Shown here: in pieces, positions 48,241 through 63,882 of the stretch
Layout: every line of letters begins with the position of its first letter
Numbering within the stretch: position 1 is the first letter of the stretch
NCBI GenBank assembly: GCA_963727525.1
Contig: CAVSGO010000007.1
Coordinates: 1,760,001 to 1,824,000 of the forward strand
Source: an uncultured bacterium
Lineage (GTDB): Bacteria; Krumholzibacteriota; Krumholzibacteriia; LZORAL124-64-63
Direction: 5' to 3'
DNA length: 64,000 bases
Translations under genes and position numbers: made by a program
Notes under the pieces: model-generated
Told to the model about the DNA's origin: nothing
What the model saw: only the letters and a program-made list of their open reading frames with translations
The model's database searches: none

Positions 48241-49481
48241 TACGCCACCTCGATGCGGCCGTCGAGCCCGTGGAGCAGACCATGGATCAACGTCAGATAC
48301 TCCACCAGGTGCCGCGTGAGCAGGAAGTTCTCGCGGATGAAGGCGTGTGCCTTGCGTCCCATAGCCATGCGCAGGTCCGGGTGGGACAGGAGATACCGGA
48401 TACGCAGCGACGCGCCTTCGGGCGTGTCGACCAGGAATCCGGTATGATGATTGGCGATTTGCAGGCGAATGCCGCCGGTGTTGCCGCCCAGCACCGGCTT
48501 GCCCTTCCACAACGCCTCGGTGACGGTGAGGCCGAAGCCCTCGCGTATCGACTTCTGCAGGACGATGTCGCTGAGCCGCTGCAAGGCATTGATCGTGCGA
48601 TGCGCGTCAGCGGGCAACAGCAGGATCCGCACGTCTTCGTCGTCGCCAGCCACCGCCTGCACTTCCTGCAGCACCGCCGCGCCCTCGGGATCATCGGTGG
48701 CCTCGCCTCCAGCCAGCACGAGTTGTAGAGACGGTACGTAACGTTTGGCAAGCTGGTAGGCGCGGACCACACCGACCGGATCCTTGAAACGATCGAAGCG
48801 GCTGATCTGCGTCAACAGGAACTTCTGCGGGTCGAGGTTGAAGCGCTGGCGCACCGACTCCATCTCGGCCGACTCGAGGTCCACGTTCTTGTCGCTCAGC
48901 GGATCGATGCTCGGCGGGATGAGGAACTGCGGATGCGGCAGGCGCTGAGTGAAATCGGGCAGCGAGAAGATGCTCGCGTCATAAGGTGCCACGTGCTTGC
49001 GCAGGTACTTCCATACCGGGCGGTACGGTCGGCTGGCGTCGATATGGCATCGCCACACCCACTTGCCCTTGCGCTCGGGAATGAGCCCCAGCAGCGGGGC
49101 CGGTTGCGGATCGTGGATCACCACCACGTCGGCCTCGCGCAGCGTGTCGCGAAGCATGTCAGCGTTGCGCGCGTTCGTGGACTCGTACGCGTCGATCAGC
49201 TCCTGCGACACCTGCTCGGCATTGCCCTGCAGCCCGTTGTGGAATTTCTTCGTGCAGGCGAAGAAGGGGTCATCGCCGAGGATCACGTCCCAGCGGCAGT
49301 CGAGCCCCAGTTCGTTGCAGAACGGCACCAGCTTGGTGAGGATCTCAGCCACGCCACCGCCCAGGCGCGTGGAATTCACGTGCACGAGGCGCAGGCCGCG
49401 CAGCGGGCGCGCCAGCGCCTGGAGCTGTTCGATGACGTCGGCACCGGCCACGGCGGCGTAACCGTCGAGAAACGCACTCAC
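48240..49481 (-). CDS. treT: Trehalose glycosyltransferring synthase (TreT-like GT4)
   Basis: HVNST..GGGVAE, HDPQP, WRCHID, PSIDPLSDKN, SRFDRFKD and QKSIREGFGLTVTEA. Confidence 0.88.
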   Translation of the reverse strand: MSAFLDGYAAVAGADVIEQLQALARPLRGLRLVHVNSTRLGGGVAEILTKLVPFCNELGLDCRWDVILGDDPFFACTKKFHNGLQGNAEQVSQELIDAYESTNARNADMLRDTLREADVVVIHDPQPAPLLGLIPERKGKWVWRCHIDASRPYRPVWKYLRKHVAPYDASIFSLPDFTQRLPHPQFLIPPSIDPLSDKNVDLESAEMESVRQRFNLDPQKFLLTQISRFDRFKDPVGVVRAYQLAKRYVPSLQLVLAGGEATDDPEGAAVLQEVQAVAGDDEDVRILLLPADAHRTINALQRLSDIVLQKSIREGFGLTVTEALWKGKPVLGGNTGGIRLQIANHHTGFLVDTPEGASLRIRYLLSHPDLRMAMGRKAHAFIRENFLLTRHLVEYLTLIHGLLHGLDGRIEVA

Positions 49482-50152
49482 GACGCCTCCTTCCAGTCGT
49501 ACTCGCGCACCATGGCGAGCACCTGCTGCTTGAGCTGGGCCAGCGTGCCCTGCAGCGGATCGACGTCGCCCAGCAGATCCGAGAGCATGCGGAAGCGCTC
49601 GCCGTACCCGTCGAGCCAGTTGCGGAGATCGTCGCGGCCGTCGGCATTACGGCGGCGGGCGTCGATGAAGTGGTAGAAGACGCTGCCGCGGCTGAAGTGC
49701 ACGAGCGCGTTCGGCAACTCGCGCGGATGGGCCACGCGGCGGCCCGCAGGAAACACCACCATCTGCGCGTCGAGGACGTGGAATTGCTCGTCGCGACGGG
49801 CCCAGGGCACCGTCTCCATCTCGTCGAGCCGGTCCTCGCAGATGTCCACGAGGTCGGTGCGCAGGTCCTCGAGATCGTCGTAGTCGGTGGGATCGACCAC
49901 GCCGAGCCGCTCGGCCAGCACGTCGTCGTGCAGACCGTGCCGCACCCAGGTGGCGAAGTCGTTGAAGAACTCGGGATCGTCGAAGCGCGGGCGCAGCATA
50001 CCGCCCCAGAAGTGGTGGTAGATGCTGCCGTGATCGGCGGTCAGAAACGCATCGCGCAGTTCGCGCAGGTTCTGCACGCTGCGCCCGGTGGCGCGCGGCA
50101 GCACGGCGCAGTCCATCACGTGGAACGGATCGGGAACGACTCCCGGCTCCAT
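49478..50152 (-). CDS. DUF5752 family protein (TreT-associated)
   Basis: SIYHHF...NDFATW and a second copy SVFYHF...DDLRNWL; overlaps treT. Confidence 0.75.
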   Translation of the reverse strand: MEPGVVPDPFHVMDCAVLPRATGRSVQNLRELRDAFLTADHGSIYHHFWGGMLRPRFDDPEFFNDFATWVRHGLHDDVLAERLGVVDPTDYDDLEDLRTDLVDICEDRLDEMETVPWARRDEQFHVLDAQMVVFPAGRRVAHPRELPNALVHFSRGSVFYHFIDARRRNADGRDDLRNWLDGYGERFRMLSDLLGDVDPLQGTLAQLKQQVLAMVREYDWKEAS

Positions 50153-50274
50153 GGCGCTCCTTCCCCTGCTCTGCGGCAACCGGTATTTCTCTAACAAAAA
50201 TTTATCAAAGACATGCAAAAGTTAGGCCAAACCCCCGCGGTCGGCCACCTCGACAGGTCGCGGGGCTTGCCGGC

Positions 50275-52305
50275 TCAGGCGTCGACGAGATTGGCCGCGA
50301 TGACCTCGGCGATGTCGCGCACGTGGAGCGATTCCTGCCGATCCGTCTCCTTCACGCCGTCCTCGAGCATGGTGAGGCAGAACGGGCAACTCGTACACAC
50401 CTCGCTCGCGCCGGTGGCCGCCGCCTCCTCGATGCGGTTGATATTGATTCGGGATCCGAGGTTCTCTTCCATGAACATGCGGCCGCCGCCGGCGCCGCAG
50501 CAGAAACCGCCTCGCCGCGAGCGCGGCATCTCGACCTGTTGCAGCCCGCCCACGGCGCCGAGCACCTCGCGCGGCGCATCGTACTCGTCGTTGTGACGGC
50601 CGAGATAGCAGGAATCGTGGAATGTCACCTCGTGCGCCGCCTCTGGCTTTACCCGCAGGCGACCCGCCTGCAGGAGGTCGCGCAGGAGTTGGCTGTGGTG
50701 CACCACCTCGACCCCGTCCAGGCCGAAATCGGGATATTCGTTCCTGATGATGTTGTATCCATGCGGGCACGCGGTGACGACCTTCGCCACCTTGTACTTC
50801 TTGAAGTGCTCGATGTTCTGCTGCGCTTGCATCTGGAAGAGATACTCGTTGCCCACGCGCCGCGAGACGTCGCCGCAGCACCCCTCCTCGATGCCGAGGA
50901 TCGCAAAGTCCACCGCGGCGCGCTGCAGACAGGTGACGAGGGCGCGCTGCACCTGCTGGTTTCGCGCATCGAAGCTACCCGCGCACCCGACGAAGAGCAG
51001 GTACTCGGCCGTGCCCTTGTCGCGCAGCTTCGGCACGTCGAGCCCCTCGCACCAGTCCTCGCGCGCTTGCGCGCTCTGATTCCACGGGTTGCTGTTGGTC
51101 TCGAGGCCGCGCAACGCGTTCTGTAGCGCGCTCGGCACCTTGGCCTGCATCATGGTCAGATGGCGACGCTGGTCGATGATGTTGGGCACGTGGTCGATCT
51201 GTACCGGACAGTGCGCCATGCAGTAGCCACAGGTGGTGCAGGCCCAGAGCACGTCGTCCTCGATCACGCCGCCGGCCAGCGGCGGTCGCTCGATCGACTC
51301 GCTCAGCGCCTTGTACTCGGTCGTGCGTCCGCTGGCGCGCAGGCGTCCGAGCGCGGCGAGACGATCGGCGATGCCGTACACGTGGTCGCGTTCGGCGGTG
51401 ATCAGCTCGCGCGGGTGCAGCGGCTTGCCCGTGACGTGCGTGGGGCAGCCGGAGTTGCAGCGGCCGCACTCGGTACAGGTGTACATATCGAGCACACGGC
51501 GCCAGGAGAAGTCCTCCACCCTGCCCACGCCAAAGCTCTCCACCCCCGCGGCGGCAAGGGCCTCGAAGTCCATCTTCTGCAGGTGCGCCGAGGGCGTCAG
51601 GCGCGCCAGGAACACCGCGGGCAGTGCGGTGATCACGTGGAAGTGCTTGCCGAAGGGCAGGTAGTTCAAGAAGGCGAGCACGAGGACGACGTGCGACCAG
51701 AAGCACACGTGGTGCCACGTCATCTGGGTGCCGGGCGGCAGGCCCCCGAACGCGCCGCTGAGCGCCGTGGCAGCCCAGGCCCAGCCGCGCTCGCTCGCCC
51801 CCGCGTCGTGTGCGAAGCGCGCCGCATCGCCGGCGAGGTCGGTGAGCATGAGCAACCCGATCCAGAGCAGGATGAGCACGGCCTCGCCGCTGAATTTCAG
51901 ACGCGCCGGCCGCGTGACCAGGCGCCGAAGGATCGCATAGGTCACCGCTGCCAGCACCAGCAGCTCACCCGCATTCAGGATCACCAGGTAGAACTTGCCG
52001 AACCAGCCGCCGAAGCCGGGCAGGTTGAAGTCGGACACGAAACCACGTCCGACGAGCGTGGTCGTGCGGAAGGCGACGATCAGGAATCCGCCGAAGATCG
52101 TGGCGTGCATCCAGCCGGGGCCGCGCTCGTAGAGGAGCTTGCGCTGGCCAAAACCCACGGCCAGCAGCTCGCGCAGCCGGCGCCCGAGATGGTCGAGCCG
52201 GTTGTCCGGTTCCAGCGCCCGCATGACGAGGATGCGGTGGACCATCGTGTTGACGAAGAGGGCGAGGGTAGCGAGTAGCAAGAGGACCATGGCCAGCGGA
52301 CCCAT
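50275..52305 (-). CDS. Membrane-bound Fe-S oxidoreductase (FadF/HdrD-like, candidate ETF:quinone oxidoreductase)
   Basis: N-terminal TMs with His residues, CTECGRCNSGCP, CTTCGYCMAHCP and two CCG domains. Confidence 0.9.
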   Translation of the reverse strand: MGPLAMVLLLLATLALFVNTMVHRILVMRALEPDNRLDHLGRRLRELLAVGFGQRKLLYERGPGWMHATIFGGFLIVAFRTTTLVGRGFVSDFNLPGFGGWFGKFYLVILNAGELLVLAAVTYAILRRLVTRPARLKFSGEAVLILLWIGLLMLTDLAGDAARFAHDAGASERGWAWAATALSGAFGGLPPGTQMTWHHVCFWSHVVLVLAFLNYLPFGKHFHVITALPAVFLARLTPSAHLQKMDFEALAAAGVESFGVGRVEDFSWRRVLDMYTCTECGRCNSGCPTHVTGKPLHPRELITAERDHVYGIADRLAALGRLRASGRTTEYKALSESIERPPLAGGVIEDDVLWACTTCGYCMAHCPVQIDHVPNIIDQRRHLTMMQAKVPSALQNALRGLETNSNPWNQSAQAREDWCEGLDVPKLRDKGTAEYLLFVGCAGSFDARNQQVQRALVTCLQRAAVDFAILGIEEGCCGDVSRRVGNEYLFQMQAQQNIEHFKKYKVAKVVTACPHGYNIIRNEYPDFGLDGVEVVHHSQLLRDLLQAGRLRVKPEAAHEVTFHDSCYLGRHNDEYDAPREVLGAVGGLQQVEMPRSRRGGFCCGAGGGRMFMEENLGSRININRIEEAAATGASEVCTSCPFCLTMLEDGVKETDRQESLHVRDIAEVIAANLVDA

Positions 52306-52412
52306 GAACGACCTTTCTGTCGAGACCTAAGGAACGGCGTAGGGCGGATTTCTTCCCCACTATAGCGTTCCTCGCCGCGAGGGGAAGGACAAAGCCCGGT
52401 GATCGGCGACTG

Positions 52413-53093
52413 TCAGTCGGCCGTCTGCTTGTCGCTCTCGCGGGTGCAGAGCAGGGCGCGGCACATCGCCATGCCGGACGGCCCGTCGGCGACGACAGCC
52501 TCGCGTGGACTCAGCTCGAGGGGGACGACGCGCCCGCAATGGCGCTGGCGCGCCTCCAGGTAGTCGGCGACGCGCAGGAGATAGAGGGAGCCGTCCTCGC
52601 ACAGCCAGGTCGCGTGATCCGCGTGGTCGCCGCTGACGCGGCGGCTCGCCGGGTCGAAATACGGCACCAGCCCCATCGGCGACGCCTGCCATAGCGGCGC
52701 CGCCTCGCGATGGCAGGTGAAGACGCAGCCGGCCGCGTGGCGGCGGGCCAGGTCCCTCGCTTCGAGCAGGCGGTGTGCGCCGAGAAGAGGCCGCTGCGGA
52801 TCGAGCACGAGCACGCCGTCGGGCGCCGGCCCGGGATCGGCCAGTAGCTGGTCCAGCACCGATTCCAGGCAGACGTGTCCCTGCGGATGGACGCGCGCGA
52901 TCGCGCCTGCCGATCGCGCCAGGACCTCCCAGCCAGTGGCGGCCGGCACGCTCAGGACGATCCGGGACGGCTCGACGGCGAGGCAGGTCCAGACGGCCCG
53001 CGCCAGGAGCGACACGCCCCCCAGCACCTGGCGCACCGGACCGGCCGATTCGCCCTGCCATCCGACGCCGATCACGGCCCAGAGATCACGCAC
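52413..53093 (-). CDS. Acylneuraminate cytidylyltransferase (NeuA)-like protein with degenerate active site
   Basis: LGG.SLL, VLVLDPQRPL, CVFT and EDGSLYLL resemble the NeuA layout; GGAGG RBS with GTG start. Confidence 0.6.
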   Translation of the reverse strand: MRDLWAVIGVGWQGESAGPVRQVLGGVSLLARAVWTCLAVEPSRIVLSVPAATGWEVLARSAGAIARVHPQGHVCLESVLDQLLADPGPAPDGVLVLDPQRPLLGAHRLLEARDLARRHAAGCVFTCHREAAPLWQASPMGLVPYFDPASRRVSGDHADHATWLCEDGSLYLLRVADYLEARQRHCGRVVPLELSPREAVVADGPSGMAMCRALLCTRESDKQTAD

Positions 53094-53346
53094 GTTCCAC
53101 GCCTCCCCTCCCCGGCTTGGACGGCCGCGCCAGCCTTTACATCGCGGCCCGCGACCGTTACTGTGTGCCGGATCCCACCTCTGGCGGCAGTTTCTGCCGC
53201 CCGGGCGCGATGCTTTTCCCGGACCGGATCCCACGCCACGGAGATTCCTGCCCGGAGAACGACATCCGGCGATGTGAGCCTCGCCCTTGCAAGTTCGAGC
53301 CCACTTCGGCCGACCCATTGCGCCGGCTGCGGAACGGGGGACTGCC

Positions 53347-53751
53347 ATGGACGACACACGGATGAAAACGCTCTTCACGACCATGCGGACCGTGGCCGTG
53401 GTCGGCCTGTCTCCGAACCCGGAGCGTGCCAGCCACGGGATCGCGAAGTTCCTCATCGGGGCAGGATTCGACGTGGTGGGGGTGAATCCTGGTCATCAGG
53501 AGATCCTCGGCGTTCCGGTGTACCCGACGCTGGGGGATGTCCCCCATCCCGTGGACCTCGTCGACATCTTCCGACGCAGCGACACGGTGGAGCCGGTCGT
53601 CCAGGCGGCCATCGCCCGCGGCGACGGCTTCGTGTGGATGCAGGAGGGCGTGGTCAACGAGACCGCCGCCGACGCCGCCGGCGACGCCGGGATCCCCGTC
53701 GTGATGGACCGTTGCGTCTACAAGGAGTGGCTGCGCCTGATGAACGCGTAG
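53347..53751 (+). CDS. CoA-binding protein (YccU-like)
   Basis: VAVVGLS, VNP, VDLVDIFR, VWMQEG and VMDRC. Confidence 0.92.
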   Translation: MDDTRMKTLFTTMRTVAVVGLSPNPERASHGIAKFLIGAGFDVVGVNPGHQEILGVPVYPTLGDVPHPVDLVDIFRRSDTVEPVVQAAIARGDGFVWMQEGVVNETAADAAGDAGIPVVMDRCVYKEWLRLMNA

Positions 53752-53760
53752 CCGGCAACC

Positions 53761-54828
53761 ATGATATCAGGACAGGACAGCCAGCGTCGCGCGGGACCGA
53801 GCCTCGTCACCGGGGCTCTCGGTTTCGTCGGCCCCTACCTCGTGGAGGCCCTGCTGCACGATGGCGAGACCGTGGTGGGGCTCGACCGGCGGCGAGCCGG
53901 TGGCGTACCGGCCGTGCGGGGGACGTTCCAGCTGGACGCGGCGTCCCCGGCCGACGGAACCACGGCCAATCTGGGCATGGCCCGGTACTCGGGTCCCGCC
54001 GGCACGTGGGACTGCTTTCTACAACCGCTCGGGGATGCCGAGGCGGTACTGGAACTCGTCCACCGGCTCCGCCCGGCAGCCATCTACCACCTGGCGGCCC
54101 AGAGTTCCGCCGCCGCATCTTTCACCGATCCCCGAGCCACGCTCGTGGGCAACCAGGCTGGCATCCTCAATCTCCTCGAGGCCGTGCGCAGCCTCCCCGC
54201 GGCCGAGCGCCCGAAGCTCGTGGTCACGGGATCGGCCGAGGAGTACGGCACCGCGATCCGCAGCGGACGACCCTGCCGCGAGGACGACGCGCTCGCGCCG
54301 GTCTCGCCCTATGGCGTCAGCAAGGCGACGCAGACCCTCCTCTGCCGCCAGTACCACCGCTCCTGGGACGTACCGGTGGTGGTCGCCCGCTCCTTCGGGC
54401 ATACGGGGGTCGGTCAGGATACCCGCTTCGTGTTTCCCAACTTCGCGACCCAGATCGCCCGGCTCGAGCGCGACGAGGCCGAGGGCGCCCTCGAGGTGGG
54501 CGACCTCTCCCCGATGCGCGACTATCTCGACGTGCGCGACGTCGTGGACGCTTACCGCCTGCTACGGGAACAGGGGCGCTCCGGTCAGGTCTATAACGTG
54601 TGCTCCGGACGGTCGTTGACGATCGGTGCCGGGCTGGAGATACTCCTCGGTGCCGCCCATCGGCCGATCTCCGTCCGCCAGGATGCGGCGCGACTGCGAC
54701 CGGCGGACATCCCGTGGTTGGTGGGCGACCCCGGTAAGCTGCAACTCGACACTGGCTGGCAACCTCGCCACCTCTTCGCTCGCACCCTGGGCGAGTTGCT
54801 GGCGACCGCCCGGAAGGAACAGGTATGA
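53761..54828 (+). CDS. NDP-sugar SDR, GDP-4-keto-6-deoxy-mannose reductase (Rmd)/GMD-like
   Basis: VTGALGFVG, YHLAAQS, GSAEEYG, SPYGVSK and RDYLDVRDVV. Confidence 0.85.
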   Translation: MISGQDSQRRAGPSLVTGALGFVGPYLVEALLHDGETVVGLDRRRAGGVPAVRGTFQLDAASPADGTTANLGMARYSGPAGTWDCFLQPLGDAEAVLELVHRLRPAAIYHLAAQSSAAASFTDPRATLVGNQAGILNLLEAVRSLPAAERPKLVVTGSAEEYGTAIRSGRPCREDDALAPVSPYGVSKATQTLLCRQYHRSWDVPVVVARSFGHTGVGQDTRFVFPNFATQIARLERDEAEGALEVGDLSPMRDYLDVRDVVDAYRLLREQGRSGQVYNVCSGRSLTIGAGLEILLGAAHRPISVRQDAARLRPADIPWLVGDPGKLQLDTGWQPRHLFARTLGELLATARKEQV

Positions 54829-56159
54829 CGCGCATCTGCATGATCGGCACCGGCTACGTGGGTCTCGTCTCGGGGGCTTGCTTCGCCGATTTCGGCCACG
54901 ACGTGGTCTGCGTCGACATCCTCGAGGAACGCATCCAGGCCCTGCGCCGCGGCGAGATCCCGTTCTACGAGCCGGGCCTCGACATGCTGGTCACCAAGAA
55001 CGTGCGCGAGGAACACCTGCGCTTCACCACCGACCTGGCCGAGGGCATGCGCGAGGCCCAGGTGGTCTTCATCGCCGTGCAGACTCCCCAGTCGGCCAGC
55101 GGCGAGGCCGACCTCAGCTACGTCATGGAAGTTGGCAAACAGATCGGCTCCCTGCTCGACGACTACAAGGTCATCTGCACCAAGAGTACGGTGCCCGTGG
55201 GCACGGCCCACATTCTCGCGGACGTGATCCGCGCCGCGCAGCCGCACCCGGTGGACTTCGACATGGCAAGCAATCCGGAATTCCTGCGCGAGGGCAGCAG
55301 CATCGAGGATTTCATGCGGCCCGACCGTGTTGTCATCGGTACGGAATCGCCCCGCGCCGAGGAACTCATGCGAGGCATCTACCAGCCACTCTACTTGCTC
55401 GACACGCCGATCGTGCACTGCCCGCGCATCGAGACGGCGGAGCTGATCAAGTATGCCTGCAACAGTTTCCTCGCCGTGAAGATCAGCTTCATCAACGAGA
55501 TCGCGACGCTGGCGGAAGCGGTGGGCGCCGACGTGTCGCAGGTGGCCAAGGCCATGGGCCTCGACCGACGCATCGGGCCGAAGTTCCTGCACGCCGGGCT
55601 CGGTTTCGGCGGGAGCTGCTTTCCCAAGGACACCAACGCGATCGTGCGCATCGGCCACGACCACGACGCGCCCATGAGCATCGTGGCATCCGCCATCGCG
55701 GTCAACGACGCCCTGCCAGCACGCGCCTTCGCGAAGGCCGGCGCCATGGTGGGCGACCTGCGCGGCAAGACAGTGGGCTTGCTCGGCCTGTCGTTCAAGC
55801 CCAACACCGACGACATCCGTCAGGCCGGTAGCCTCGAGCTCACGCGGCTGCTCATGGAGAACGGCGCCACGGTGCGTGCCCACGATCCAGTCGCCATGGA
55901 CAACTTCCGCAAGGTCTACCCCGACATCGCCTACTGCCGCAATGCGTACGAGACCTGCGAGGGCGCCGACCTCTGTGTGCTGGTGACCGAGTGGAACCAG
56001 TACCGGCAGCTCGATTTCAACCACCTCGGCGAGATCATGACGCGCAAGCTCTTCCTCGATTGCCGCAACGTGTACAACCGCGAACGGATCGCGCCGTACG
56101 GATTCGCATATGCGTGCTTCGGCCGCCCCCACGAAACGATCGCGGAGGTCCACCCATGA
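54825..56159 (+). CDS. ugd: UDP-glucose 6-dehydrogenase
   Basis: GTGYVGL, KSTVPVG, NPEFLREG, GFGGSCFPKD and FKPNTDD. Confidence 0.95.
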   Translation: MTRICMIGTGYVGLVSGACFADFGHDVVCVDILEERIQALRRGEIPFYEPGLDMLVTKNVREEHLRFTTDLAEGMREAQVVFIAVQTPQSASGEADLSYVMEVGKQIGSLLDDYKVICTKSTVPVGTAHILADVIRAAQPHPVDFDMASNPEFLREGSSIEDFMRPDRVVIGTESPRAEELMRGIYQPLYLLDTPIVHCPRIETAELIKYACNSFLAVKISFINEIATLAEAVGADVSQVAKAMGLDRRIGPKFLHAGLGFGGSCFPKDTNAIVRIGHDHDAPMSIVASAIAVNDALPARAFAKAGAMVGDLRGKTVGLLGLSFKPNTDDIRQAGSLELTRLLMENGATVRAHDPVAMDNFRKVYPDIAYCRNAYETCEGADLCVLVTEWNQYRQLDFNHLGEIMTRKLFLDCRNVYNRERIAPYGFAYACFGRPHETIAEVHP

Positions 56160-56611
56160 TCGATGGCGCCCTCGTCAAACCGCTCAAGCTGATCCCCGAC
56201 GAGCGTGGCTTCCTCTACGAGATGCTGCGGATCGACGACCCCTTCTTCCAGCAGTTCGGCCAGTGCTACCTCACCGCCGTGTACCCCGGCGTGGTGAAAG
56301 GCTGGCACTGGCACAAGCTGCAGACCGATCACTTCGTCTGCGTCAAGGGCATGGCGAAGGTGGTGCTCTACGACCGTCGCGAGGACTCGCCAACCCACGG
56401 CGAGGTAAACGAGTTCTTCATGGGCGAGCGCAACCCCATCCTCCTGGTCATCCCCCGCGGCGTGCTGCACGGCATGAAGGGTATCGGCACCGAGACCACC
56501 ATGATCATCAACCTGCCGACGCATACTTACAACCATCAGGACCCCGACGAGTACCGCGTCGACCCCCACGCCAACGAGATCCCTTACGACTGGGCCGCCC
56601 GCGATTTCTGA
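56156..56611 (+). CDS. dTDP-4-dehydrorhamnose 3,5-epimerase family protein (cupin)
   Basis: DERGFLYE, GVVKGWHWH, YD.REDSPT and IPRGVLHG. Confidence 0.88.
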   Translation: MIDGALVKPLKLIPDERGFLYEMLRIDDPFFQQFGQCYLTAVYPGVVKGWHWHKLQTDHFVCVKGMAKVVLYDRREDSPTHGEVNEFFMGERNPILLVIPRGVLHGMKGIGTETTMIINLPTHTYNHQDPDEYRVDPHANEIPYDWAARDF

Positions 56612-56633
56612 CGGGCCGGCCTGAAAGGCGACC

Positions 56634-57761
56634 ATGACCCCCAAGGAACTCCAGCGCGTCGGGCGCTACGACCTGGTGACGCCCATGATCCCGTGCAAAG
56701 ACGAGATCATGGCCGGTTTCGAGCGGATCCTGATGTCCGGCAACTACATCCTGGGAGAGGAAGTGCGCCTGCTGGAGCACGAGATGGCCGAGCAATGTGG
56801 CGTGCCCGACGCAGTGGGCGTGGCCAGCGGGTCCGAGGCGCTCTACCTCGCGCTCGCCATGGCGGGCGTGCGGCCGGGGAGCGAGGTGATCACCACCCCG
56901 TACACCTTCGACGCCACGATCGAGGCCATCATCATGCTCTATGCCCGCCCCGTGTTCGTCGACATCCGACCGGGCGACCTCAACATCGACCCCGGCCTGA
57001 TCGAGGCCGCCATCAGCCCGCGCACGCGCGCCATCCTGCCGGTGCACATCTTCGGCGCCCCCTGCGACATGGACCCCATCATGGACGTGGCCCGGCGCTT
57101 CGACCTGCAGGTCATCGTCGACATGGCCCAGGCCTGGGGCACCCTCTTCGAGGGCAAACCATGCGGCAGCATCGGGCGCATGAGCACCCTGAGCTTCTAT
57201 CCCACCAAGAACCTGCCGGGAATCGGCGACGGCGGTCTGGTCTTCTGCCGGGAGCGTGAGGACGCCGATCGCATCCGCCAGCTCCGCGGCCACAAGGCCC
57301 TGTGGATGAACAAGCATCTCTACTGCGGCTGGAACAGCCGCCTCGATGAGGTGCAGGCCATGGTCATCCGCGCTCGTCTCGCTCGGTTCGACGACGAGCA
57401 GCGCGACCGCAACCGCGTGGCGGAGATCTACGATTCCCTGATCCCGGCGGCCAACCGTCTGGACACGGCGACCTCGCCGGCGGGAACCCTCGTCACGTAC
57501 CACCAGTACTGGGTCCGGTCGCGGGCCCGGAACCAGCTCCGAGACGTGCTCGACGCCGCCGGGATCGACACCGGCATCTACTATGATCCGCCGCTTCACA
57601 AACACCCGCTCTCCGAGTACTGTCGCACGGGTACCCCGCTGCCCCAGGCCGAGGCTGCCGGCCGCGAGGTCTTGACCCTGCCGATCCACGCGGCCCTCCC
57701 CGAGGAACAGGCCCGCCGGATCGGCTCGATTGTCGGCGAGTTCCTGGCTGCCCACGGCTAG
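56634..57761 (+). CDS. DegT/DnrJ/EryC1/StrS aminotransferase
   Basis: SG..AL, PVFVDI, PVHIFG, D.AQA, SFYPTKNL (PLP Lys) and NSRLDE.QA. Confidence 0.92.
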   Translation: MTPKELQRVGRYDLVTPMIPCKDEIMAGFERILMSGNYILGEEVRLLEHEMAEQCGVPDAVGVASGSEALYLALAMAGVRPGSEVITTPYTFDATIEAIIMLYARPVFVDIRPGDLNIDPGLIEAAISPRTRAILPVHIFGAPCDMDPIMDVARRFDLQVIVDMAQAWGTLFEGKPCGSIGRMSTLSFYPTKNLPGIGDGGLVFCREREDADRIRQLRGHKALWMNKHLYCGWNSRLDEVQAMVIRARLARFDDEQRDRNRVAEIYDSLIPAANRLDTATSPAGTLVTYHQYWVRSRARNQLRDVLDAAGIDTGIYYDPPLHKHPLSEYCRTGTPLPQAEAAGREVLTLPIHAALPEEQARRIGSIVGEFLAAHG

Positions 57762-57784
57762 CGAACGGATCGAAAGGCTCGGAC

Positions 57785-58834
57785 GTGAGCGCCAAGGTGC
57801 TAAGCTTCGGTACCCTCGACGCAAGCCTGGCCAAGGACCAGACGCAGATCGTCATGGACCGGATCCAGGCCGCCAGTCCGCGTCTGGCCTGCCAGATGCA
57901 ACGCTTGCCCTCGCCGCTGTCCGACGGCGAACGCGAGGGCGAGCCCTTCCTAGCGTGCAGTGCCCAGGAAGTCGAGTTCCTCGAGAATCAGCTCCTGGCC
58001 GGCGAGTTCCGCCTGCTCGTGGTGCGGGCTCCCGATCTCGTGCTGCCCCTGCGCAAGGGCCTCTGCATCGCCGCCGTTCCGGTGCGCGACACGCCCTTCG
58101 ACGCCCTGCTCTCGCGTCGCGGCATCATCATCGACGACCTCGAGGAAAGCGCCCATGTCGGCGTGCTCACGCTGCGCTCCAAGGTGCAGGTGCAGGCGCT
58201 GTGGCCGCACATCACGGTGTCGCTCCACCACGGCGGGGTGATGGCCTCTCTCGACCTGCTTTTGCGGCAGAGCGAGATCGATGCCCTCGTGGCCCCGGCG
58301 GCGGTGGCCGAGCATCTGGGTCTGCAGAGCGTGGTCTCCGAGATCTTCAATCCCGATCTGGTGCTACCTGGCGGCGGTCAGGGCATCCTCGTGGTGCTCG
58401 GGCGCAGCGACGACGCCGAAGCCCGCGAGCTGCTCGCCCCCATCCACAGTGAGGCCGCCCTGCGCGAGATGGAGGCCGAGCACGCGTTCCTGCAGCGCTT
58501 CGCCAGCGACCAGGACCTCCCGCTGAGTGTCCTGGCGCGCTGCGCCGGCGACCGCATCTCCATTGCCGGCGCCATCAGCTCGTCGCAGGGCGCCAGCGCT
58601 GCGCGGGCGGAAATCGAGGGCCCGCTGGATCAGGCCACGAACCTCGGGGCCCAGCTCGCCGAAGCGTTGCTGCAGAACGACGCCGTCGTGATCGGCCTGC
58701 TCGAGGCCGATTTCCCCGAGGGCGTGCCTGAAGACGACACGCTCGACGAGGCTGTCCCCAGCGAGCTGGAGCCGGACGTGATGGAGGAACTGGATCAGCT
58801 CACCGGGGAGTACGACGACGACGACGACATCTGA
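57785..58834 (+). CDS. Hydroxymethylbilane synthase (HemC)-like protein lacking the cofactor-binding Cys
   Basis: Colinear with HemC (GT...LA..Q, R..P.DAL, VG...LR, LPGGGQG, AE.AFL, G..LAE.LL) but key residues are replaced; acidic tail. Confidence 0.8.
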   Translation: MSAKVLSFGTLDASLAKDQTQIVMDRIQAASPRLACQMQRLPSPLSDGEREGEPFLACSAQEVEFLENQLLAGEFRLLVVRAPDLVLPLRKGLCIAAVPVRDTPFDALLSRRGIIIDDLEESAHVGVLTLRSKVQVQALWPHITVSLHHGGVMASLDLLLRQSEIDALVAPAAVAEHLGLQSVVSEIFNPDLVLPGGGQGILVVLGRSDDAEARELLAPIHSEAALREMEAEHAFLQRFASDQDLPLSVLARCAGDRISIAGAISSSQGASAARAEIEGPLDQATNLGAQLAEALLQNDAVVIGLLEADFPEGVPEDDTLDEAVPSELEPDVMEELDQLTGEYDDDDDI

Positions 58835-58857
58835 CGAAACGACCGTGGCAGGTCGCG

Positions 58858-58885
58858 GAAGGCCCGGGCCGTTGCCCGGGCCTTC
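58858..58885. terminator. Hairpin between convergent genes
   Basis: GAAGGCCCGGGC-CGTT-GCCCGGGCCTTC. Confidence 0.7.
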
Positions 58886-58911
58886 GTCATACCGGCAGGA
58901 TCGCAAGCGCC

Positions 58912-61740
58912 CTACTGGACGATCACCATCTTGCGCGTCTCGGTGAAGTTCTTTCCGCTCAGACGGTAGAAATACGTGCCGCTGCTGGTCTTCAGACCGT
59001 GATCGTCACGGCCGTCCCAGGTGCGCGTGTACTGACCCGCCACCAGCGGTGCGTGCTCGAGCGTGCGAACTCGCTGGCCGCGCACGTCGAAGATCGTCAG
59101 CGACACCACGCCGGCGTCGGCCGGCACGCTGAAGCTTATCTGCGTGGAAGGATTGAACGGGTTCGGCGCATTCTGCGCCAGACCGAAGGCGGTGGGCAGC
59201 GCATCCGGCGTGGCCGTAGCCGCGCCGTCGCATTCGAAACCCGAGATATCGTAGAGCGCCCAGCCCACGAGCGTCCCGGTGCCGCCGTTGCCCTGGTCAC
59301 GCACGATGAGCTGCCAGTCGCCATCAAGCGGCTGACCCAGGAACGTGCTCAGCGGTTGCGCCGGCGTGAGCGTGTTGGGGTAGTTGCCGATGATGTTGTC
59401 GGCCGAGCCACCCTGGAACGCCGTCAGGAAGATCGACGTGCCCTGCGGCGAGACCAGGCGCACGATGAGATCGCCGATGTAGTCGTGCAGGATGTTCACG
59501 TCGAGGTTCAGGTTCTCGTCGACGGTGGCACCCGTACCGCTGATCGTGATCGTGCTGACGACCTGGTTGCCATCGTTGTCCGGCACCGGGGTGTTCGGGC
59601 TCGCCACACCGTAACCGCCGAGCGGTACACCCACGTAGAGCTGAGCCGATCGCGTCACGCTGGCCGGAACGCCGTTCACCTGGTAGTCAATGGCCAGGGA
59701 GAAAGCCATGAGAGTCCCGCACGCGACGTTGCCATCCACGGTGACGGTGTAATCCACCGTGCTGGTGCTCTGACCGTTCACTGGCAGGTCGGGATAGTTC
59801 GCCGTGTCCTGGACCACTGTCACACCCGGCGTGGAGGTGCTCAGCACCGCGCTCACCGCGGTGGCGCCGGCCAGTCCGCTGTTCGCCAGCGTCACCTGCA
59901 CGTCCACCGTCTCGCCAGGATCCGCCGCGCCGTTGCCCGACGGCTCGGACGTCACGGCGAAGGACGCGACACCCACCGCCGGCAGCGGTTCGAGGATGAT
60001 GTTGTGCACGAGGAACTTCTGCACGAAGACCCCGGCGTGCGGGCCGCCGGGCTCCATCGCCTGCGCCGTGGCGATGATGACGTTGGCCATGTCACGCATC
60101 TTGAGACCGCTGCCAAGACCGAACTTCGACTCGAGCAGGATCGAGTCTACCGATTCGCGGGTCTCGCCCATGCCCACCAGCGTGATCAGCGACTGGAAGA
60201 GCGGCGTGCTCCACAGTTCGTCCGACTGGTAGCCGCCGGGGATCGACACGTGCGCCGGGTAGAAGGTGGTGTGCACGTACTGCGCGCCGTTGGCGTTCAG
60301 GATGCGTCCCGGCCAGCACTGGTTGCCGTTGCCATGGCCGTCCCAGGAGTAGATGTAGTTGGGAAAGAACGTGGGACCATTGGGGGTGCTGTAGCTGTAG
60401 GAACCACCCCAGTAGTCGCCCCAGCCCTCGCCCATGGCGCCGGTGTCGCCGCCTGACCAGTTGTGATTGATGTCCGAATCGATCGCATGGCCATACTCGT
60501 GCCAGATCACGTCGGCATCCTCGTCGTCATCGACACAGCCGTGACCAAAGGCCAGTCGGTTGGAGCCGGGCAGGTAGTGCGAGTTGTCGGCGCCGCTGAG
60601 GCCGTCGGTGTCCGTGCCGATCGAGCCGTCCTGGATGCCCATGGCGCCCACGAAGCCGAGGTCCTGCATGTAGCGCTGGCTCTTGTCGAGCTGGAAGTAC
60701 ACCATCGCATCGTCGAAGGAATTGTCGCCGCGGGCGCGATTCCAGTTGCCGTCGGGCGTGGTGCTGGGCGCCGTATTGGGAGTCTCGAAGTTGATGATAT
60801 TCACCCAGGGGCCGTTGAGGCGATAGACGGAACCGTCGAATTCGATGTCCATCAGCGGCTCGGTGAAGTAAGCGTTGGTAAAGGCGCTGGCCGGCGAGTT
60901 GTCCTGGAGGTTGTTGTTGATCAGCGTGGTGCGCGGATCCGGGTCGAAGACCAGGCCGGTGCCGTTCACGCGCGACTTCGCCGCGTTCATCATGGCGGCG
61001 CGCTTGGCCTCGAGCTCGGTGATGCGCGCGAAGGCCGCCTGGCGATCGGCCAGCGGGCCCTGGTGCTGACTCAGACGAACCTCGACCGGATCGACCGGCT
61101 GACGGTACATGGCCGTGTCCGTCACCTCGACGATCTGGCCGGTCACCGCGTCGATGCGGCAGCGCCAGGCGCCGTCTGGACCGTCGAGATCGAGATCGAC
61201 CAGCCAGTTCAGGCGGAAGCTCTCGCCCTCGGGCGTGTAGACCAGCTTCGCCGCCGGTAGCGACCGCAGGTCGCCGTAGGCACCCAGATAGCCCCAGGCG
61301 ATGTCGTACGCCGTTTCGGCGTCCATGCCACCGCGGGGCAGGAACGTCGCGTTCTCGCCCACGGGGTAGGTATTGTTGAAGATGCGCATCACGTGCCCGT
61401 CGCGCTTGCTCACGGACACGATGAACTCGGCGCCCTCGACGGGCAGGCCATTGAGCATTTGCTGGAAGGTGACATGGCGGGCAAGCAAGCTTTCGCGTTC
61501 GCCGCTGGGCATGAGATTGCCCAGGTCGGACGGCAACGCATACCTGGTCGCCTGATCTTGCAGGAAAGCCTCGGCGGTGCCTTGCGCGGTCGCACCCGCG
61601 ACGGCGTGCCAGGCGGGGTCGAACTGGACCTTCGCGGTCTCGCGATAATCCGTATGATAGGTGTCCGTCGCCAGCGAGGCCGCGCTCGCGGCAAAAGCAC
61701 CGGTAGCTAGCAGACCGATGACCAGTACCTTCAATTTCAT
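58912..61740 (-). CDS. Secreted M36/M4-type metallopeptidase with FTP/PepSY propeptide, P-domain and FlgD-Ig CTD
   Basis: Signal peptide, FQQ..NG.PV, IDAVTG, HEYGH...MGEGWGD, H.YIGDL.V.LVSP.G and NAPNPFNP. Confidence 0.88.
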   Translation of the reverse strand: MKLKVLVIGLLATGAFAASAASLATDTYHTDYRETAKVQFDPAWHAVAGATAQGTAEAFLQDQATRYALPSDLGNLMPSGERESLLARHVTFQQMLNGLPVEGAEFIVSVSKRDGHVMRIFNNTYPVGENATFLPRGGMDAETAYDIAWGYLGAYGDLRSLPAAKLVYTPEGESFRLNWLVDLDLDGPDGAWRCRIDAVTGQIVEVTDTAMYRQPVDPVEVRLSQHQGPLADRQAAFARITELEAKRAAMMNAAKSRVNGTGLVFDPDPRTTLINNNLQDNSPASAFTNAYFTEPLMDIEFDGSVYRLNGPWVNIINFETPNTAPSTTPDGNWNRARGDNSFDDAMVYFQLDKSQRYMQDLGFVGAMGIQDGSIGTDTDGLSGADNSHYLPGSNRLAFGHGCVDDDEDADVIWHEYGHAIDSDINHNWSGGDTGAMGEGWGDYWGGSYSYSTPNGPTFFPNYIYSWDGHGNGNQCWPGRILNANGAQYVHTTFYPAHVSIPGGYQSDELWSTPLFQSLITLVGMGETRESVDSILLESKFGLGSGLKMRDMANVIIATAQAMEPGGPHAGVFVQKFLVHNIILEPLPAVGVASFAVTSEPSGNGAADPGETVDVQVTLANSGLAGATAVSAVLSTSTPGVTVVQDTANYPDLPVNGQSTSTVDYTVTVDGNVACGTLMAFSLAIDYQVNGVPASVTRSAQLYVGVPLGGYGVASPNTPVPDNDGNQVVSTITISGTGATVDENLNLDVNILHDYIGDLIVRLVSPQGTSIFLTAFQGGSADNIIGNYPNTLTPAQPLSTFLGQPLDGDWQLIVRDQGNGGTGTLVGWALYDISGFECDGAATATPDALPTAFGLAQNAPNPFNPSTQISFSVPADAGVVSLTIFDVRGQRVRTLEHAPLVAGQYTRTWDGRDDHGLKTSSGTYFYRLSGKNFTETRKMVIVQ

Positions 61741-61916: not shown

Positions 61917-63782
61917 TTACATGTTTGGCAGCGGCGTGACTTCCAGCGGGAAATCGTGCTGCGAGCCCGGCCCCCACGCGTGGGCCGTGAGGCTGTCGTG
62001 GAACAGGGCATTCGAGCCATTGCGAAGGCTGTAGGCCTCGTAGCCCAGCATGTTCAGGAACGCCGTGATCTGGGACGAGGTCTGCCCCGTCCAGCAGTAG
62101 ACCACGATCGGCTTGTCCAGGGGCAGGTGCCCGAGCAACTGGTCCAGGCCGAGGCTGCTGCCCGGCGAGAACTGGTAGGCGCCAGGAATGTGGCCCGGCG
62201 TGCCGGCGCTGCCGGTACCGTCGTAGTCGGCCTCGCCGAAGTAGTTGAGGATGAAGTAGTCACCCAGGTTGTCCTGGATGTCGGAGTACCCGATGCTCTT
62301 GAAACCGTCGGTGAGCATCGCCGCCACGCGGTCGGCCACGACGGTCTGCGGGGTCTCGTCCGCGAGCGTCGGATAGTCGTGCCAGACCAGCATGGTATTG
62401 TTGTGCGTGGTCTCGGGGTTGGTCAGCAGGTTGGCGCAGCTCGACGTCCAGTGGTCATAGCCGTCCTGGGTGCTCCATGACGACATGCCGAAGCCCAGCG
62501 TGTAGGTGTCGGTGTAGCCCATCATCTCGAGCGCGATCTTGGCGTGGCCTGCCGACTGGCCCGAGTAGCAGGCGACGACGAGCGGCTTGTCCGTGGGAAT
62601 CGTCGTGCCGACGTCGCTCAGCAGCGTGCCCAGCGAGGAATGGTACGCCCCGGCGATATGACCCGCGTCATACGTGGCCTGCGAGCGGATATCGATGACG
62701 GTGTAGTCCGACAGGTTGTCATAGAGCACCTGCGCCGAGATCACGCCCGGACAGTCGGCGGTGTTCACATAGTTGATGCCCGCGTCGAGCAACGTCTGGA
62801 AGGTCTCGTTCGGCTGGTAGCCGGAGGCCAGTGAGTAGTCGTGCTTCGACGTTTCGGCCCACGTGTGCGCCGTCAGGCTGCTGTGGAAGAGCGTGTTGGC
62901 GCCGTAGCGCAGGCTGTAGGCGTCGTAGCCGAGCATCTGCAGGTACGCGGTGACCTGCGACGACGTCTGGCTGGTCCAGCAGTAGACGATGATCGGCATG
63001 TCGGTGGGCAGGTATTTCAGCATCTGGTCCGCGCCCAGGCTCGCGCCCGGCGTGAACTGGAAGGCGCCCGGGATGTGGCCGGGCACGCCGGCGGTGCCGA
63101 CGCCGTTGTAGTCGTCCGCGCCGAAGTAATTCACGATGAAGTACGCGTCGAGATTGTCCTGGATATCGGACCATGCCTTGCCCCAGCTGCCGTTCAGCAG
63201 CATGGCCTGCACGCGCTCCTGAACGACCGTGGCCGGGGCCTCGGTGAGCACCGGGAATTCGTGTTCCACGAGACTGGCATTGTTGTTCGTGGTCTCGGGG
63301 CTGGCCAGGTTGTCGCCAACCGCGCCGTCCCAGCCGCCGCACAGCGCCGTGCTCCACGACGACATGCCGAAGCCCAGCGTGTAAACATCGGCGTAACCCA
63401 TCATCTCGAGAGCGATCTTGCCGCGGCCCGCGCTCTGACCGGTGTAGCAGGCCACGACCAGCGGCTTGTCCGTGGGAATCGTCGTGCCGACGTCGGTGAG
63501 CAGGGTGGCCAGCGACGAGTTGTAGGCGCCCGGGATGTGGCCGGCGAGGTAGGTGGCATTGCTACGGATGTCGATGACGGTGTAGTCGGCCAGATTGTCC
63601 TTCAAGGTCTGGGCCGAGATCACGCCCGGGCAGTCGGGCGAGTTGATGTAGGCCGCGCCCGCGGTCGCCATGGTCTCGAAGGCCGTGGTCGTGGGCGGCT
63701 GCGTGGTATCGTCATCCGAGCAACCCCAGAAGAGTGCCAGGACGAGCATAAGGAAAATCCAGCTGAGTCCCTTGCGATTCAT
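61917..63782 (-). CDS. Lipoprotein with four rhodanese-like domains (two tandem repeats)
   Basis: Lipobox FWGC; repeated IDIRS...GHI.GA, VVACY.GQSAG, GHIPGA.QF and VYCWT.QTSS. Confidence 0.88.
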   Translation of the reverse strand: MNRKGLSWIFLMLVLALFWGCSDDDTTQPPTTTAFETMATAGAAYINSPDCPGVISAQTLKDNLADYTVIDIRSNATYLAGHIPGAYNSSLATLLTDVGTTIPTDKPLVVACYTGQSAGRGKIALEMMGYADVYTLGFGMSSWSTALCGGWDGAVGDNLASPETTNNNASLVEHEFPVLTEAPATVVQERVQAMLLNGSWGKAWSDIQDNLDAYFIVNYFGADDYNGVGTAGVPGHIPGAFQFTPGASLGADQMLKYLPTDMPIIVYCWTSQTSSQVTAYLQMLGYDAYSLRYGANTLFHSSLTAHTWAETSKHDYSLASGYQPNETFQTLLDAGINYVNTADCPGVISAQVLYDNLSDYTVIDIRSQATYDAGHIAGAYHSSLGTLLSDVGTTIPTDKPLVVACYSGQSAGHAKIALEMMGYTDTYTLGFGMSSWSTQDGYDHWTSSCANLLTNPETTHNNTMLVWHDYPTLADETPQTVVADRVAAMLTDGFKSIGYSDIQDNLGDYFILNYFGEADYDGTGSAGTPGHIPGAYQFSPGSSLGLDQLLGHLPLDKPIVVYCWTGQTSSQITAFLNMLGYEAYSLRNGSNALFHDSLTAHAWGPGSQHDFPLEVTPLPNM

Positions 63783-63882
63783 CGCGTCAACTCCTCGGTC
63801 TGGCCCTGTGGGCCGTGAGCAGGGCGGCGGTCGCCCCATCGCGGTACCGGCCGGCTCCCTCCGGAGCCGGCCGGCATGCGGA

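Follow-up and report, generated by a model that had tools for sequence, protein, structure and literature searches.

A cofactor-less relative of HemC at the end of a nucleotide-sugar operon in Candidatus Krumholzibacteriota

Introduction

The DNA considered here (hereafter, the window) is a stretch of 64,000 nucleotides (nt) from an uncultured bacterium of Candidatus Krumholzibacteriota (assembly GCA_963727525.1, contig CAVSGO010000007.1, positions 1,760,001 to 1,824,000, forward strand). Its subject is a gene at 57785..58834 on the + strand, the product of which, 349 amino acids plus a stop codon, has the three-domain fold of HemC, the porphobilinogen deaminase or hydroxymethylbilane synthase of the heme pathway, without the cysteine that carries the HemC cofactor. 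This HemC-like protein is very probably a functional descendant of HemC that is not a hydroxymethylbilane synthase; it has lost most of the residues by which HemC is recognised, it evolves under purifying selection, and its gene stands last in a nucleotide-sugar operon. It represents a phylum-wide offshoot of HemC in which the cofactor has been dropped, the cleft rebuilt and a tail gained, and which survives where other heme-pathway genes are not found.

To our knowledge, HemC has been treated as a one-function family, that is, as one enzyme whose covalent cofactor is unique to it. The literature searched, in which subscription-only papers are not covered, yielded no account of a bacterial HemC paralogue lacking the cysteine or of a HemC-derived pseudoenzyme.

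The HemC fold

Homology to HemC runs from end to end, as an earlier note on this sequence had judged by eye, and the alignment to PF01379 and PF03900 that it proposed recovers both HemC domain families. PF01379 matches with 85.8 bits (cut-off 22.1), amino acids 8-214 aligning to positions 3-206 of the 207 of the profile, and PF03900 matches with 26.6 bits, marginally above its gathering cut-off of 26; that both Pfam gathering thresholds are passed speaks for homology only. The NCBIfam model for hemC, TIGR00212, aligns over positions 3-291 of its 293 (289 positions) with a score of 129.6 bits (129.9 in the genome search), which lies below the 164-bit equivalog cut-off, and no curated NCBIfam model other than hemC matches the protein. 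All 17 sequence matches in the PDB are porphobilinogen deaminases, the best being 5h6o (E 3.2e-25), and the ESM Atlas returns HemC clusters only, one of which is commonest in Candidatus Krumholzibacteriota. Longer, fused forms of the protein were not found at E values up to 1e-20, which counts as weak evidence.

The structure prediction that had likewise been proposed gives a confident HemC fold. The AlphaFold model, computed from an alignment of 75 sequences, reaches a predicted local distance difference test score (pLDDT) of 91.3 and a predicted template-modelling score (pTM) of 0.85, and the 22 best among the Foldseek matches listed are all HemC, with target-normalised template-modelling (TM) scores of 0.76-0.91; the next fold class appears first at E 1.5e-8. 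The predicted structure comprises the three domains of HemC, namely domains 1-2, the binding-protein-like lobes of the cleft (57806..58426, +, amino acids 8-214, PF01379), and domain 3 (58466..58672, +, amino acids 228-296, PF03900), in which the counterpart of the cysteine loop reads F-A-S-D-Q.

Loss of the cofactor cysteine and remodelling of the cleft

The hallmarks of HemC, in the part of the source available (PMC3949521), are an invariant cysteine bearing the dipyrromethane cofactor, an arginine-rich cleft and an invariant catalytic aspartate. Their fate was followed in a family alignment of 75 sequences, consisting of the window protein as query and P0003-P0076, which share 43-81% identity with it. 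The alignment excludes P0002, which equals the query, P0077-P0080, which are fragments or of unusual length, and the distant canonical HemCs; 14 canonical HemCs served as the comparison set for column conservation.

When the window protein is aligned to Escherichia coli HemC (1pda), each of the motif replacements reported earlier is found at its place, that is, T10-L11-D12-A13, V80-R81-A82-P83-D84, G126-V-L-T-L-R-S132, H149-G-G-V-M-A-S155 and F239-A-S-D-Q243. The single exchanges are Arg11 to Leu, Ser13 to Ala, Lys83 to Pro, Ser128 to Leu, Ser129 to Thr, Arg132 to Ser, Arg149 to His, Asn151 to Gly, Arg155 to Ser and Arg176 to His (H177 here), and the cofactor-bearing Cys242 of E. coli is replaced by Gln243. 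The remodelled cleft is made up of L11, E62, P83, V127, S132, H149, G151, S155 and H177. Of R11, R131, R132, R149, R155 and R176, which we take to be the cleft arginines by which E. coli HemC binds the carboxylates of the pyrroles, the window protein keeps only R131. Most catalytic residues are indeed replaced, as the earlier note held, but the loss is not total; Asp84, Arg101, Arg131, Gln19 and the Q199-G200 pair are retained.

Across the family alignment, the cofactor column contains cysteine in none of the 75 sequences (Q in 37, L in 36, M in 1 and S in 1), and the aspartate preceding it (D242) is kept in 72. Asp84 and Arg101 are present in 75/75 and Arg131 in 68/75. The Arg11 column is Leu in 68/75, the Arg155 column Ala in 68/75, the Arg176 column His (H177) in 72/75, the Asn151 column Gly in 75/75, the Thr127 column Val in 75/75 and the Phe62 column Glu in 67/75, while the Arg132 column holds Ser, Thr or Ala and R149 is still Arg in 43/75; a cysteine is found at amino acid 36 in 64/75. 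Of the columns conserved to at least 90% in canonical HemC, the family retains 30 and has lost 42, and a further 60 columns are conserved to at least 90% only in the HemC-like family and not in canonical HemC. At the 23 aligned columns which we take, after E. coli HemC, to line the HemC cleft, the net charge averages -0.55 in the family versus +6.79 in canonical HemC; a strongly positive cleft has become roughly neutral or acidic.

To judge from these residues, the HemC-like protein cannot be a normal hydroxymethylbilane synthase. To this extent its earlier description as a catalytically dead HemC holds, but deadness itself does not follow, as Asp84 never varies within this lineage and the protein may have a new activity. 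As a separate observation, six HemC homologues outside the family (P0109, P0110, P0122, P0163, P0172 and P0207) carry P, P, Q, H, D and N, respectively, at the cysteine column, and three of these six retain all cleft arginines.

Just beyond the canonical end of HemC, a family-specific motif, L-L-E-A-D-F-P-E-G-x-P, is found (58697..58729, +, amino acids 305-315), in which L305 and A308 are invariant and L306, E307, F310, P311, G313 and P315 are each present in 74/75 sequences. It is followed by an acidic tail (58730..58831, +, amino acids 316-349), which had been noticed earlier as rich in D and E and in which 17 of the last 34 residues are D or E and none is K or R. The tail is modelled at low confidence, with a single short helix predicted at amino acids 330-340. 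Among the relatives, it has at least 35% D/E in 73/75, with a median of 33 amino acids and 45% D/E.

Selection, family size and distribution

Purifying selection is indicated by the ratio of nonsynonymous to synonymous substitutions (dN/dS), a check that had been suggested for this gene. In four close pairs picked by hand, each from within one genus and with a dN of at most 0.2, the Nei-Gojobori dN/dS of the HemC-like gene is 0.12, 0.22, 0.23 and 0.32, and that of the neighbouring DegT aminotransferase gene in the same four pairs is 0.15, 0.10, 0.15 and 0.20. The ratios of 0.4-1.0 obtained from distant pairs, with DegT giving similar values, were discarded as artefacts of saturation or codon bias, and the pairs that come next in synonymous distance were dropped on the same grounds. 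The earlier note had also raised strain-specific decay, which would leave the cysteine in the orthologues; since it is kept in 0/75, the family is an old and selected one rather than a product of such decay. In the working sense of an enzyme homologue that lacks key catalytic or cofactor residues and is retained by selection, the HemC-like protein would therefore be classed as a pseudoenzyme.

A word-indexed protein search with the HemC-like protein as query gave 93 matches. When 1.84 billion representatives were searched exhaustively with a profile, six matches scored above 360 bits and three at 204-225 bits, and the rest of the 150 matches listed were ordinary HemCs, apart from a few fragments, which shows that the family is small. 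All 80 loci fetched come from a collection of species-representative genomes assembled from metagenomes. Most relatives are labelled Candidatus Krumholzibacteriia or Krumholzibacteriota, other labels being 'uncultured Fibrobacteraceae' and, once each, Latescibacterota, Gemmatimonas sp. and Fibrobacter sp. A strong match is present in every sampled genome of the window's family (24/24 and 60/60, in overlapping samples), and the reading frame is open in all family matches listed but one, which contains a TGA. Among sequencing runs, no RNA run was listed, and two DNA runs contained a small share (0.05-0.06) of the words sampled. The relatives are named 'hypothetical protein' by NCBI and hydroxymethylbilane synthase by another public source.

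Independence from the heme pathway

The genome of the window (4.66 Mb in 8 contigs) contains a separate canonical hemC, a search for which had been proposed. The window lies on contig C7, canonical hemC and hemB on C5, and hemD on C8, in keeping with the earlier remark that no other hem genes are nearby. The canonical hemC encodes 310 amino acids, scores 275.8 bits on TIGR00212, contains every canonical motif including the cysteine, and adjoins a hemB gene with 447 bits on the ALAD family. When 61 genomes of the window's family were searched with TIGR00212, 51 were found to have a match over the cut-off; in one of these 51 (G021), the passing match is the HemC-like gene itself at 164.5 bits, HemC-like copies otherwise scoring 103-162 bits. 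It follows that both copies coexist in most genomes of the family.

Elsewhere, the HemC-like gene occurs by itself. In four genomes that are 96-99% complete (G036, G026, G037 and G042), neither a PF00490 (ALAD, hemB) match nor a cysteine-bearing HemC was detected, and TIGR00212 matches nothing but the cofactor-less gene of the sugar cluster; hemD was found only in G036. Similarly, in one genus of the window's family (g22), all three sampled genomes (75-94% complete) have the HemC-like gene only and no ALAD match, and at least one of them carries the usual run of dehydrogenase, DegT and HemC-like genes (L035). The gene is thus kept without detectable hemB or canonical hemC in seven genomes of 75-99% completeness, an incompleteness owing to which absence is no proof. 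Its retention where other heme-pathway genes are lacking argues for a new role.

These genomes also illustrate a risk of annotation, as a step of the heme pathway could be wrongly credited to these uncultured bacteria. The cofactor-less genes of G037 (L042) and G042 (L041) pass the TIGR00212 cut-off with 172 and 193 bits, respectively, against the required 164, and both are without the cysteine. Because cofactor-less relatives pass the hemC cut-off or are labelled hydroxymethylbilane synthase, automated reconstructions could credit a heme step that is absent.

Operon context

The HemC-like open reading frame begins with GTG and has no internal stops, its 349 codons being open throughout, so that the earlier statement that it is free of frameshifts is upheld; the GTG start agrees with the orthologue N-termini, M-x-A-K/R-V-L-S-F-G. 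Between the DegT stop codon and this GTG lies a spacer (57762..57784, +) of 23 nt, the length that had been given for it, with a purine-rich GAAAGG at 8-13 nt 5' of the GTG. The protein has no obvious signal peptide.

The gene is the last of a run on the same strand, in which neighbours overlap by 4 nt or are separated by short gaps. The run opens with a gene for a CoA-binding-domain protein (53287..53751, +, 154 amino acids; PF13380 CoA_binding_2, 134 bits), which is followed by a short-chain dehydrogenase/reductase (SDR), a nucleotide-sugar epimerase, dehydratase or reductase (53761..54828, +, 355 amino acids; PF16363 193 bits, PF01370 148 bits), whose nearest solved relative is 2pk3, a GDP-6-deoxy-D-lyxo-4-hexulose reductase (E 1e-58). 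The third gene encodes a UDP-glucose/nucleotide-sugar 6-dehydrogenase (UGDH; 54825..56159, +, 444 amino acids; PF03721, PF00984 and PF03720; TIGR03026 at 440 bits, over its cut-off), and its start overlaps the SDR stop codon by 4 nt. A cupin of the RmlC/FdtA-like epimerase or ketoisomerase type comes next (56156..56611, +, 151 amino acids; PF00908 51.9 bits, PF05523 25.2 bits), overlapping the dehydrogenase stop codon by 4 nt and matching PDB 3ejk, a 'dTDP sugar isomerase' (E 1.9e-23). The longest open reading frame between the dehydrogenase and DegT, 56110-56637, was rejected as an out-of-frame artefact, being Arg/Pro-rich and without a family match; its tblastn matches arise because the cupin gene lies in another frame. 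Directly before the HemC-like gene stands a pyridoxal-phosphate-dependent sugar aminotransferase of the DegT/DnrJ/EryC1 type (56634..57761, +, 375 amino acids; PF01041 304 bits), whose nearest solved relatives are 7b0d, the DesV-type 2oga, WbpE (3nyu) and QdtB (3frk), which we take to be mostly C-3 aminotransferases of nucleotide sugars. At E values up to 0.01, Pfam reveals no acyl-, formyl- or methyltransferase family among the six operon genes.

This arrangement is conserved, and the synteny check proposed in the earlier note bears out the association with DegT and the sugar operon. DegT lies directly upstream on the same strand in 19/19 short loci and in 77/77 loci, with gaps of 13-138 nt; the 77 are those loci, among the 80 fetched, with at least 1200 nt of upstream DNA, and the two sets share species genomes and are not independent counts. 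Linkage to a nucleotide-sugar operon on the same strand and at a short gap is thus found in 77/77 loci and, in addition, in six other families. In ten extended loci of the same family examined by tblastn, the CoA-binding gene, UGDH, DegT and the HemC-like gene are present in 10/10, the SDR in 8/10 and the cupin in 5/10, the CoA-binding gene lying directly 5' of the sugar genes in 10/10. Among the 80 short loci, UGDH is found in 74/80 and the cupin in 16/80; the cupin is an optional member of the operon.

On the 3' side, a perfect, GC-rich 12-bp hairpin with the loop CGTT was recognised by eye at 58858..58885, between the HemC-like stop codon and a convergent peptidase gene, and it is likely to form the transcript end of both genes. 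A consensus scan of the locus for promoters and terminators returned no terminator and one weak promoter-like site inside the SDR gene, the hairpin being absent from its output because it has no T-run; an Rfam scan of 52000-59200 gave no match. The convergent gene (58912-61740, -, 942 amino acids) is secreted-peptidase-like, with a fungalysin/thermolysin propeptide motif, a weak M36 match, a proprotein-convertase P domain and a C-terminal sorting domain of the type IX secretion system. In 70/71 loci of the same family, convergent pyrD/pyrK are found downstream of the HemC-like gene instead, which points to a rearrangement or insertion directly after the hairpin in the window. In this genome, pyrD, serS and genes for glycosyltransferases of family 4 (GT4) are located elsewhere; the 3' neighbours have been rearranged, and the HemC-like gene is still with the sugar genes.

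Other features of the surroundings were recorded on their own account. About 1 kb (52306-53286) between a divergent Fe-S/CCG-domain gene and the CoA-binding gene contains no open reading frame with a Pfam match and no Rfam match, and in related loci the length of the equivalent gap varies between about 270 and 1860 nt. A trehalose-type cluster on the - strand (46741-50221), with GT20 (OtsA-like), a TreT-type trehalose synthase and DUF5752, is partly syntenic in several related loci. At 61917-63839 on the - strand, a protein of 640 amino acids with four rhodanese domains is encoded.

Counterparts across the phylum

Positional counterparts of the HemC-like gene, more degenerate in sequence, close sugar or glycan operons in six other families (f3-f8), the window's own family being f1. 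The general form of the operon outside the latter is an SDR with UGDH or a 2-epimerase, followed by Wzx, GT4 and the HemC-like gene. In the sister family, f6, a counterpart that is 31-33% identical follows a run of SDR, SDR, dehydrogenase, Wzx-like flippase and GT4, with convergent pyrD after it; its cysteine column is occupied by Trp, Asp84 is kept and an acidic tail is present. In f4 and f8, a shorter form without the tail ends a run of SDR, UDP-GlcNAc 2-epimerase, Wzx and GT4, with Asp at the Arg11 column, Asp84 lost and E, V, P or A at the cysteine column, and is itself followed by serS, a histidine kinase and a PglZ response regulator. The form of f5, which sits between a dehydrogenase and serS, has Pro at the cysteine column and Glu at position 84 and is without a few other residues, while it retains many that are typical of HemC (R11, S13, K83, R131, R155 and R176). 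Very degenerate forms occupy the same position between GT4 and serS in f3 and f7, with end branches of 1.14-1.25. Asp84 is lost in f3, f4, f7 and f8 and is Glu in f5. Family f2 has canonical hemC only, beside hemA. As regards the 3' flank, a conserved same-strand set of serS, histidine kinase and PglZ-domain response regulator was observed downstream of the HemC-like gene at L038, L042, L054 and L055, which represent four other families.

In a quick maximum-likelihood tree of 40 sequences, f1 and f6 are joined with a support of 98 and f4, f8, f3 and f7 with 95, and the cysteine-bearing HemCs, those of the phylum included, are held together with 93. A single clade for all 20 cofactor-less forms is not rejected by the approximately unbiased (AU) test (p 0.60), for which the clade was named after inspection of the tree and in which long branches limit the outcome.

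Interpretation

The favoured reading, to which somewhat less than an even chance is given, is that the HemC-like protein is a cleft-binding or adapter protein serving the sugar-nucleotide pathway. It is proposed because the gene has its place in the operon, the cleft has reversed its charge, and a conserved linear motif and an acidic tail have been gained. The gene is the local form of an old HemC-derived lineage that stands as the last same-strand gene of a nucleotide-sugar or glycan-precursor operon in Candidatus Krumholzibacteriota, and the remodelled cleft of its product would bind a metabolite of the pathway, such as an amino-sugar or uronic-acid nucleotide. Alternatively, a partner protein would be bound via the conserved DFPEGxP motif and the acidic tail; in either case, binding would then assist or tune the supply of precursors. 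Both the binding of a ligand or partner and a role in glycan synthesis are what we infer from this setting. The offshoot itself shows that the HemC fold has a second use, for which the operon supplies concrete candidate ligands and partners.

Several observations weigh against this interpretation. The earlier proposal of a role linked to glycan synthesis, for which ligand binding, scaffolding and regulation were named as candidates, stands as far as operon linkage is concerned, but the putative role itself is deduced from gene order, and unrelated neighbours such as pyrD and serS are syntenic as well. Because gene order around the locus is conservative, including that of the unrelated pyrD/pyrK, serS, histidine kinase and response regulator, adjacency is weaker evidence here than usual, and synteny may in part reflect inheritance rather than function. 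The immediate upstream partner varies by lineage, being DegT here and GT4 elsewhere. Moreover, one ligand shared by all lineages is doubtful, since the cleft residues differ between them and Asp84 is lost in four families, and the invariant Asp84 of the window's lineage would suit an enzyme as well as a binding protein. Finally, the gene has been cleanly deleted in one genome of f7 (G050), where GT4 and serS are 165 nt apart, and it is therefore dispensable in that lineage.

That the protein is a new enzyme is a serious rival, though one of low probability. The retained acid/base Asp84 would act on the amino-sugar nucleotide produced by DegT, possibly in the N-modification step for which operons of this kind usually carry a gene, and perhaps together with the CoA-binding protein. 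The persistence of Asp84 in 75/75 sequences agrees with this, as do the new residues to which other cleft columns have become fixed (V127 and G151 in 75/75, H177 and D242 in 72/75); the lack of a match to acyl-, formyl- or methyltransferase families among the six operon genes would leave such a step to be filled, and CoA_binding_2, UGDH, DegT and the HemC-like protein are the four members found in every extended locus. Enzymes with binding-protein-like lobes exist, for instance Thi5, albeit seen here as weak structural neighbours only. However, no specific chemistry is indicated, the counterparts in sister lineages are without DegT within about 9 kb (tblastn, E 1e-8), Asp84 does not survive in four families, and disordered acidic tails are met with more typically in interaction modules.

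An equally serious rival, with the same low probability, is a functional protein that is unrelated to sugars and owes its position to an ancestor with hemC at that place. Counterparts precede serS in five families, and pyrD/pyrK follow in two, so that genes unrelated to the sugar pathway share the same conserved neighbourhood; the many HemC residues of the f5 form are those expected of in-place decay of an ancestral hemC, and a single origin of all cofactor-less forms is compatible with the AU test (p 0.60). Two observations speak against such inheritance. Through at least three different rearrangements, the gene has parted from serS or pyrD and not from the sugar genes, the last of which it follows on the same strand at 13-138 nt, and the hairpin after it would mark the end of the unit.

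Slightly less probable again is a more specific proposal, namely that sugar-nucleotide chemistry or sensing has taken over the HemC scaffold. In this lineage, the amino-sugar nucleotide made by DegT would be bound in the cleft, which is without the cofactor but keeps Asp84. The protein would then either carry out the N-modification that the operon is missing, possibly aided by the CoA-binding protein, or signal the amount of this metabolite to a partner via the DFPEGxP motif and the tail. If true, this fold would for the first time be seen to serve a function other than tetrapyrrole synthesis.

The two remaining explanations are far weaker. That the gene is a slowly decaying relic without a function of its own in this genome is very improbable; the strong divergence of the f3 and f7 counterparts (end branches 1.14-1.25) and the deletion in one genome would fit, but the frame is open in all family matches listed except the one with a TGA, the 60 family-only conserved columns and dN/dS of 0.12-0.32 indicate constraint, and the motif and tail peculiar to the family have been acquired rather than lost. 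That the protein is still a hydroxymethylbilane synthase, for example a back-up enzyme holding the cofactor in another way, is almost certainly wrong; despite the retention of Asp84, Arg101, Arg131 and the Q-G pair and a cysteine at amino acid 36 in 64/75, the cofactor cysteine is absent in 75/75, five arginines by which HemC would bind its cofactor or substrate have given way to other residues, Glu stands in place of the substrate-stacking Phe, and the gene is kept in genomes without detectable hemB and thus without porphobilinogen to act on.

Comparison with known systems

Among known proteins, HemC itself (EC 2.5.1.61; E. coli 1PDA and Vibrio cholerae 5H6O) is the closest to the window protein, which is homologous to it over the full length, has the same three domains and likewise keeps Asp84, Arg101, Arg131, Gln19 and Q199-G200. 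Unlike HemC, the window protein is without the cofactor cysteine, Arg11, Arg132, Arg155 and Arg176 (this copy also without Arg149), has Phe62 changed to Glu and Asn151 to Gly, possesses the DFPEGxP motif and an acidic tail in addition, and does not reach the equivalog cut-off of NCBIfam. Furthermore, its gene is encoded with sugar genes rather than hem genes and is kept where hemB is not found.

With pseudoenzymes in general, the HemC-like protein shares the lack of defining catalytic and cofactor residues, purifying selection and, in most genomes of the family, coexistence with an active paralogue; it differs from them in retaining the catalytic aspartate.

The next structural neighbours after HemC, at E of about 1e-8, are YhfZ (2OZZ), Thi5 (4ESX), MetQ (4YAH) and the VFT2 domain of BvgS (3MPL), which share the two-lobe cleft with domains 1-2. 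With TM scores of 0.28-0.39 on the query, the structural resemblance is weak and does not extend to the sequence, and the window protein differs in adding domain 3 of HemC and in having no obvious signal peptide. These two-lobe proteins and enzymes provide a precedent for ligand sensing, or for chemistry other than that of HemC, in a cleft of this kind.

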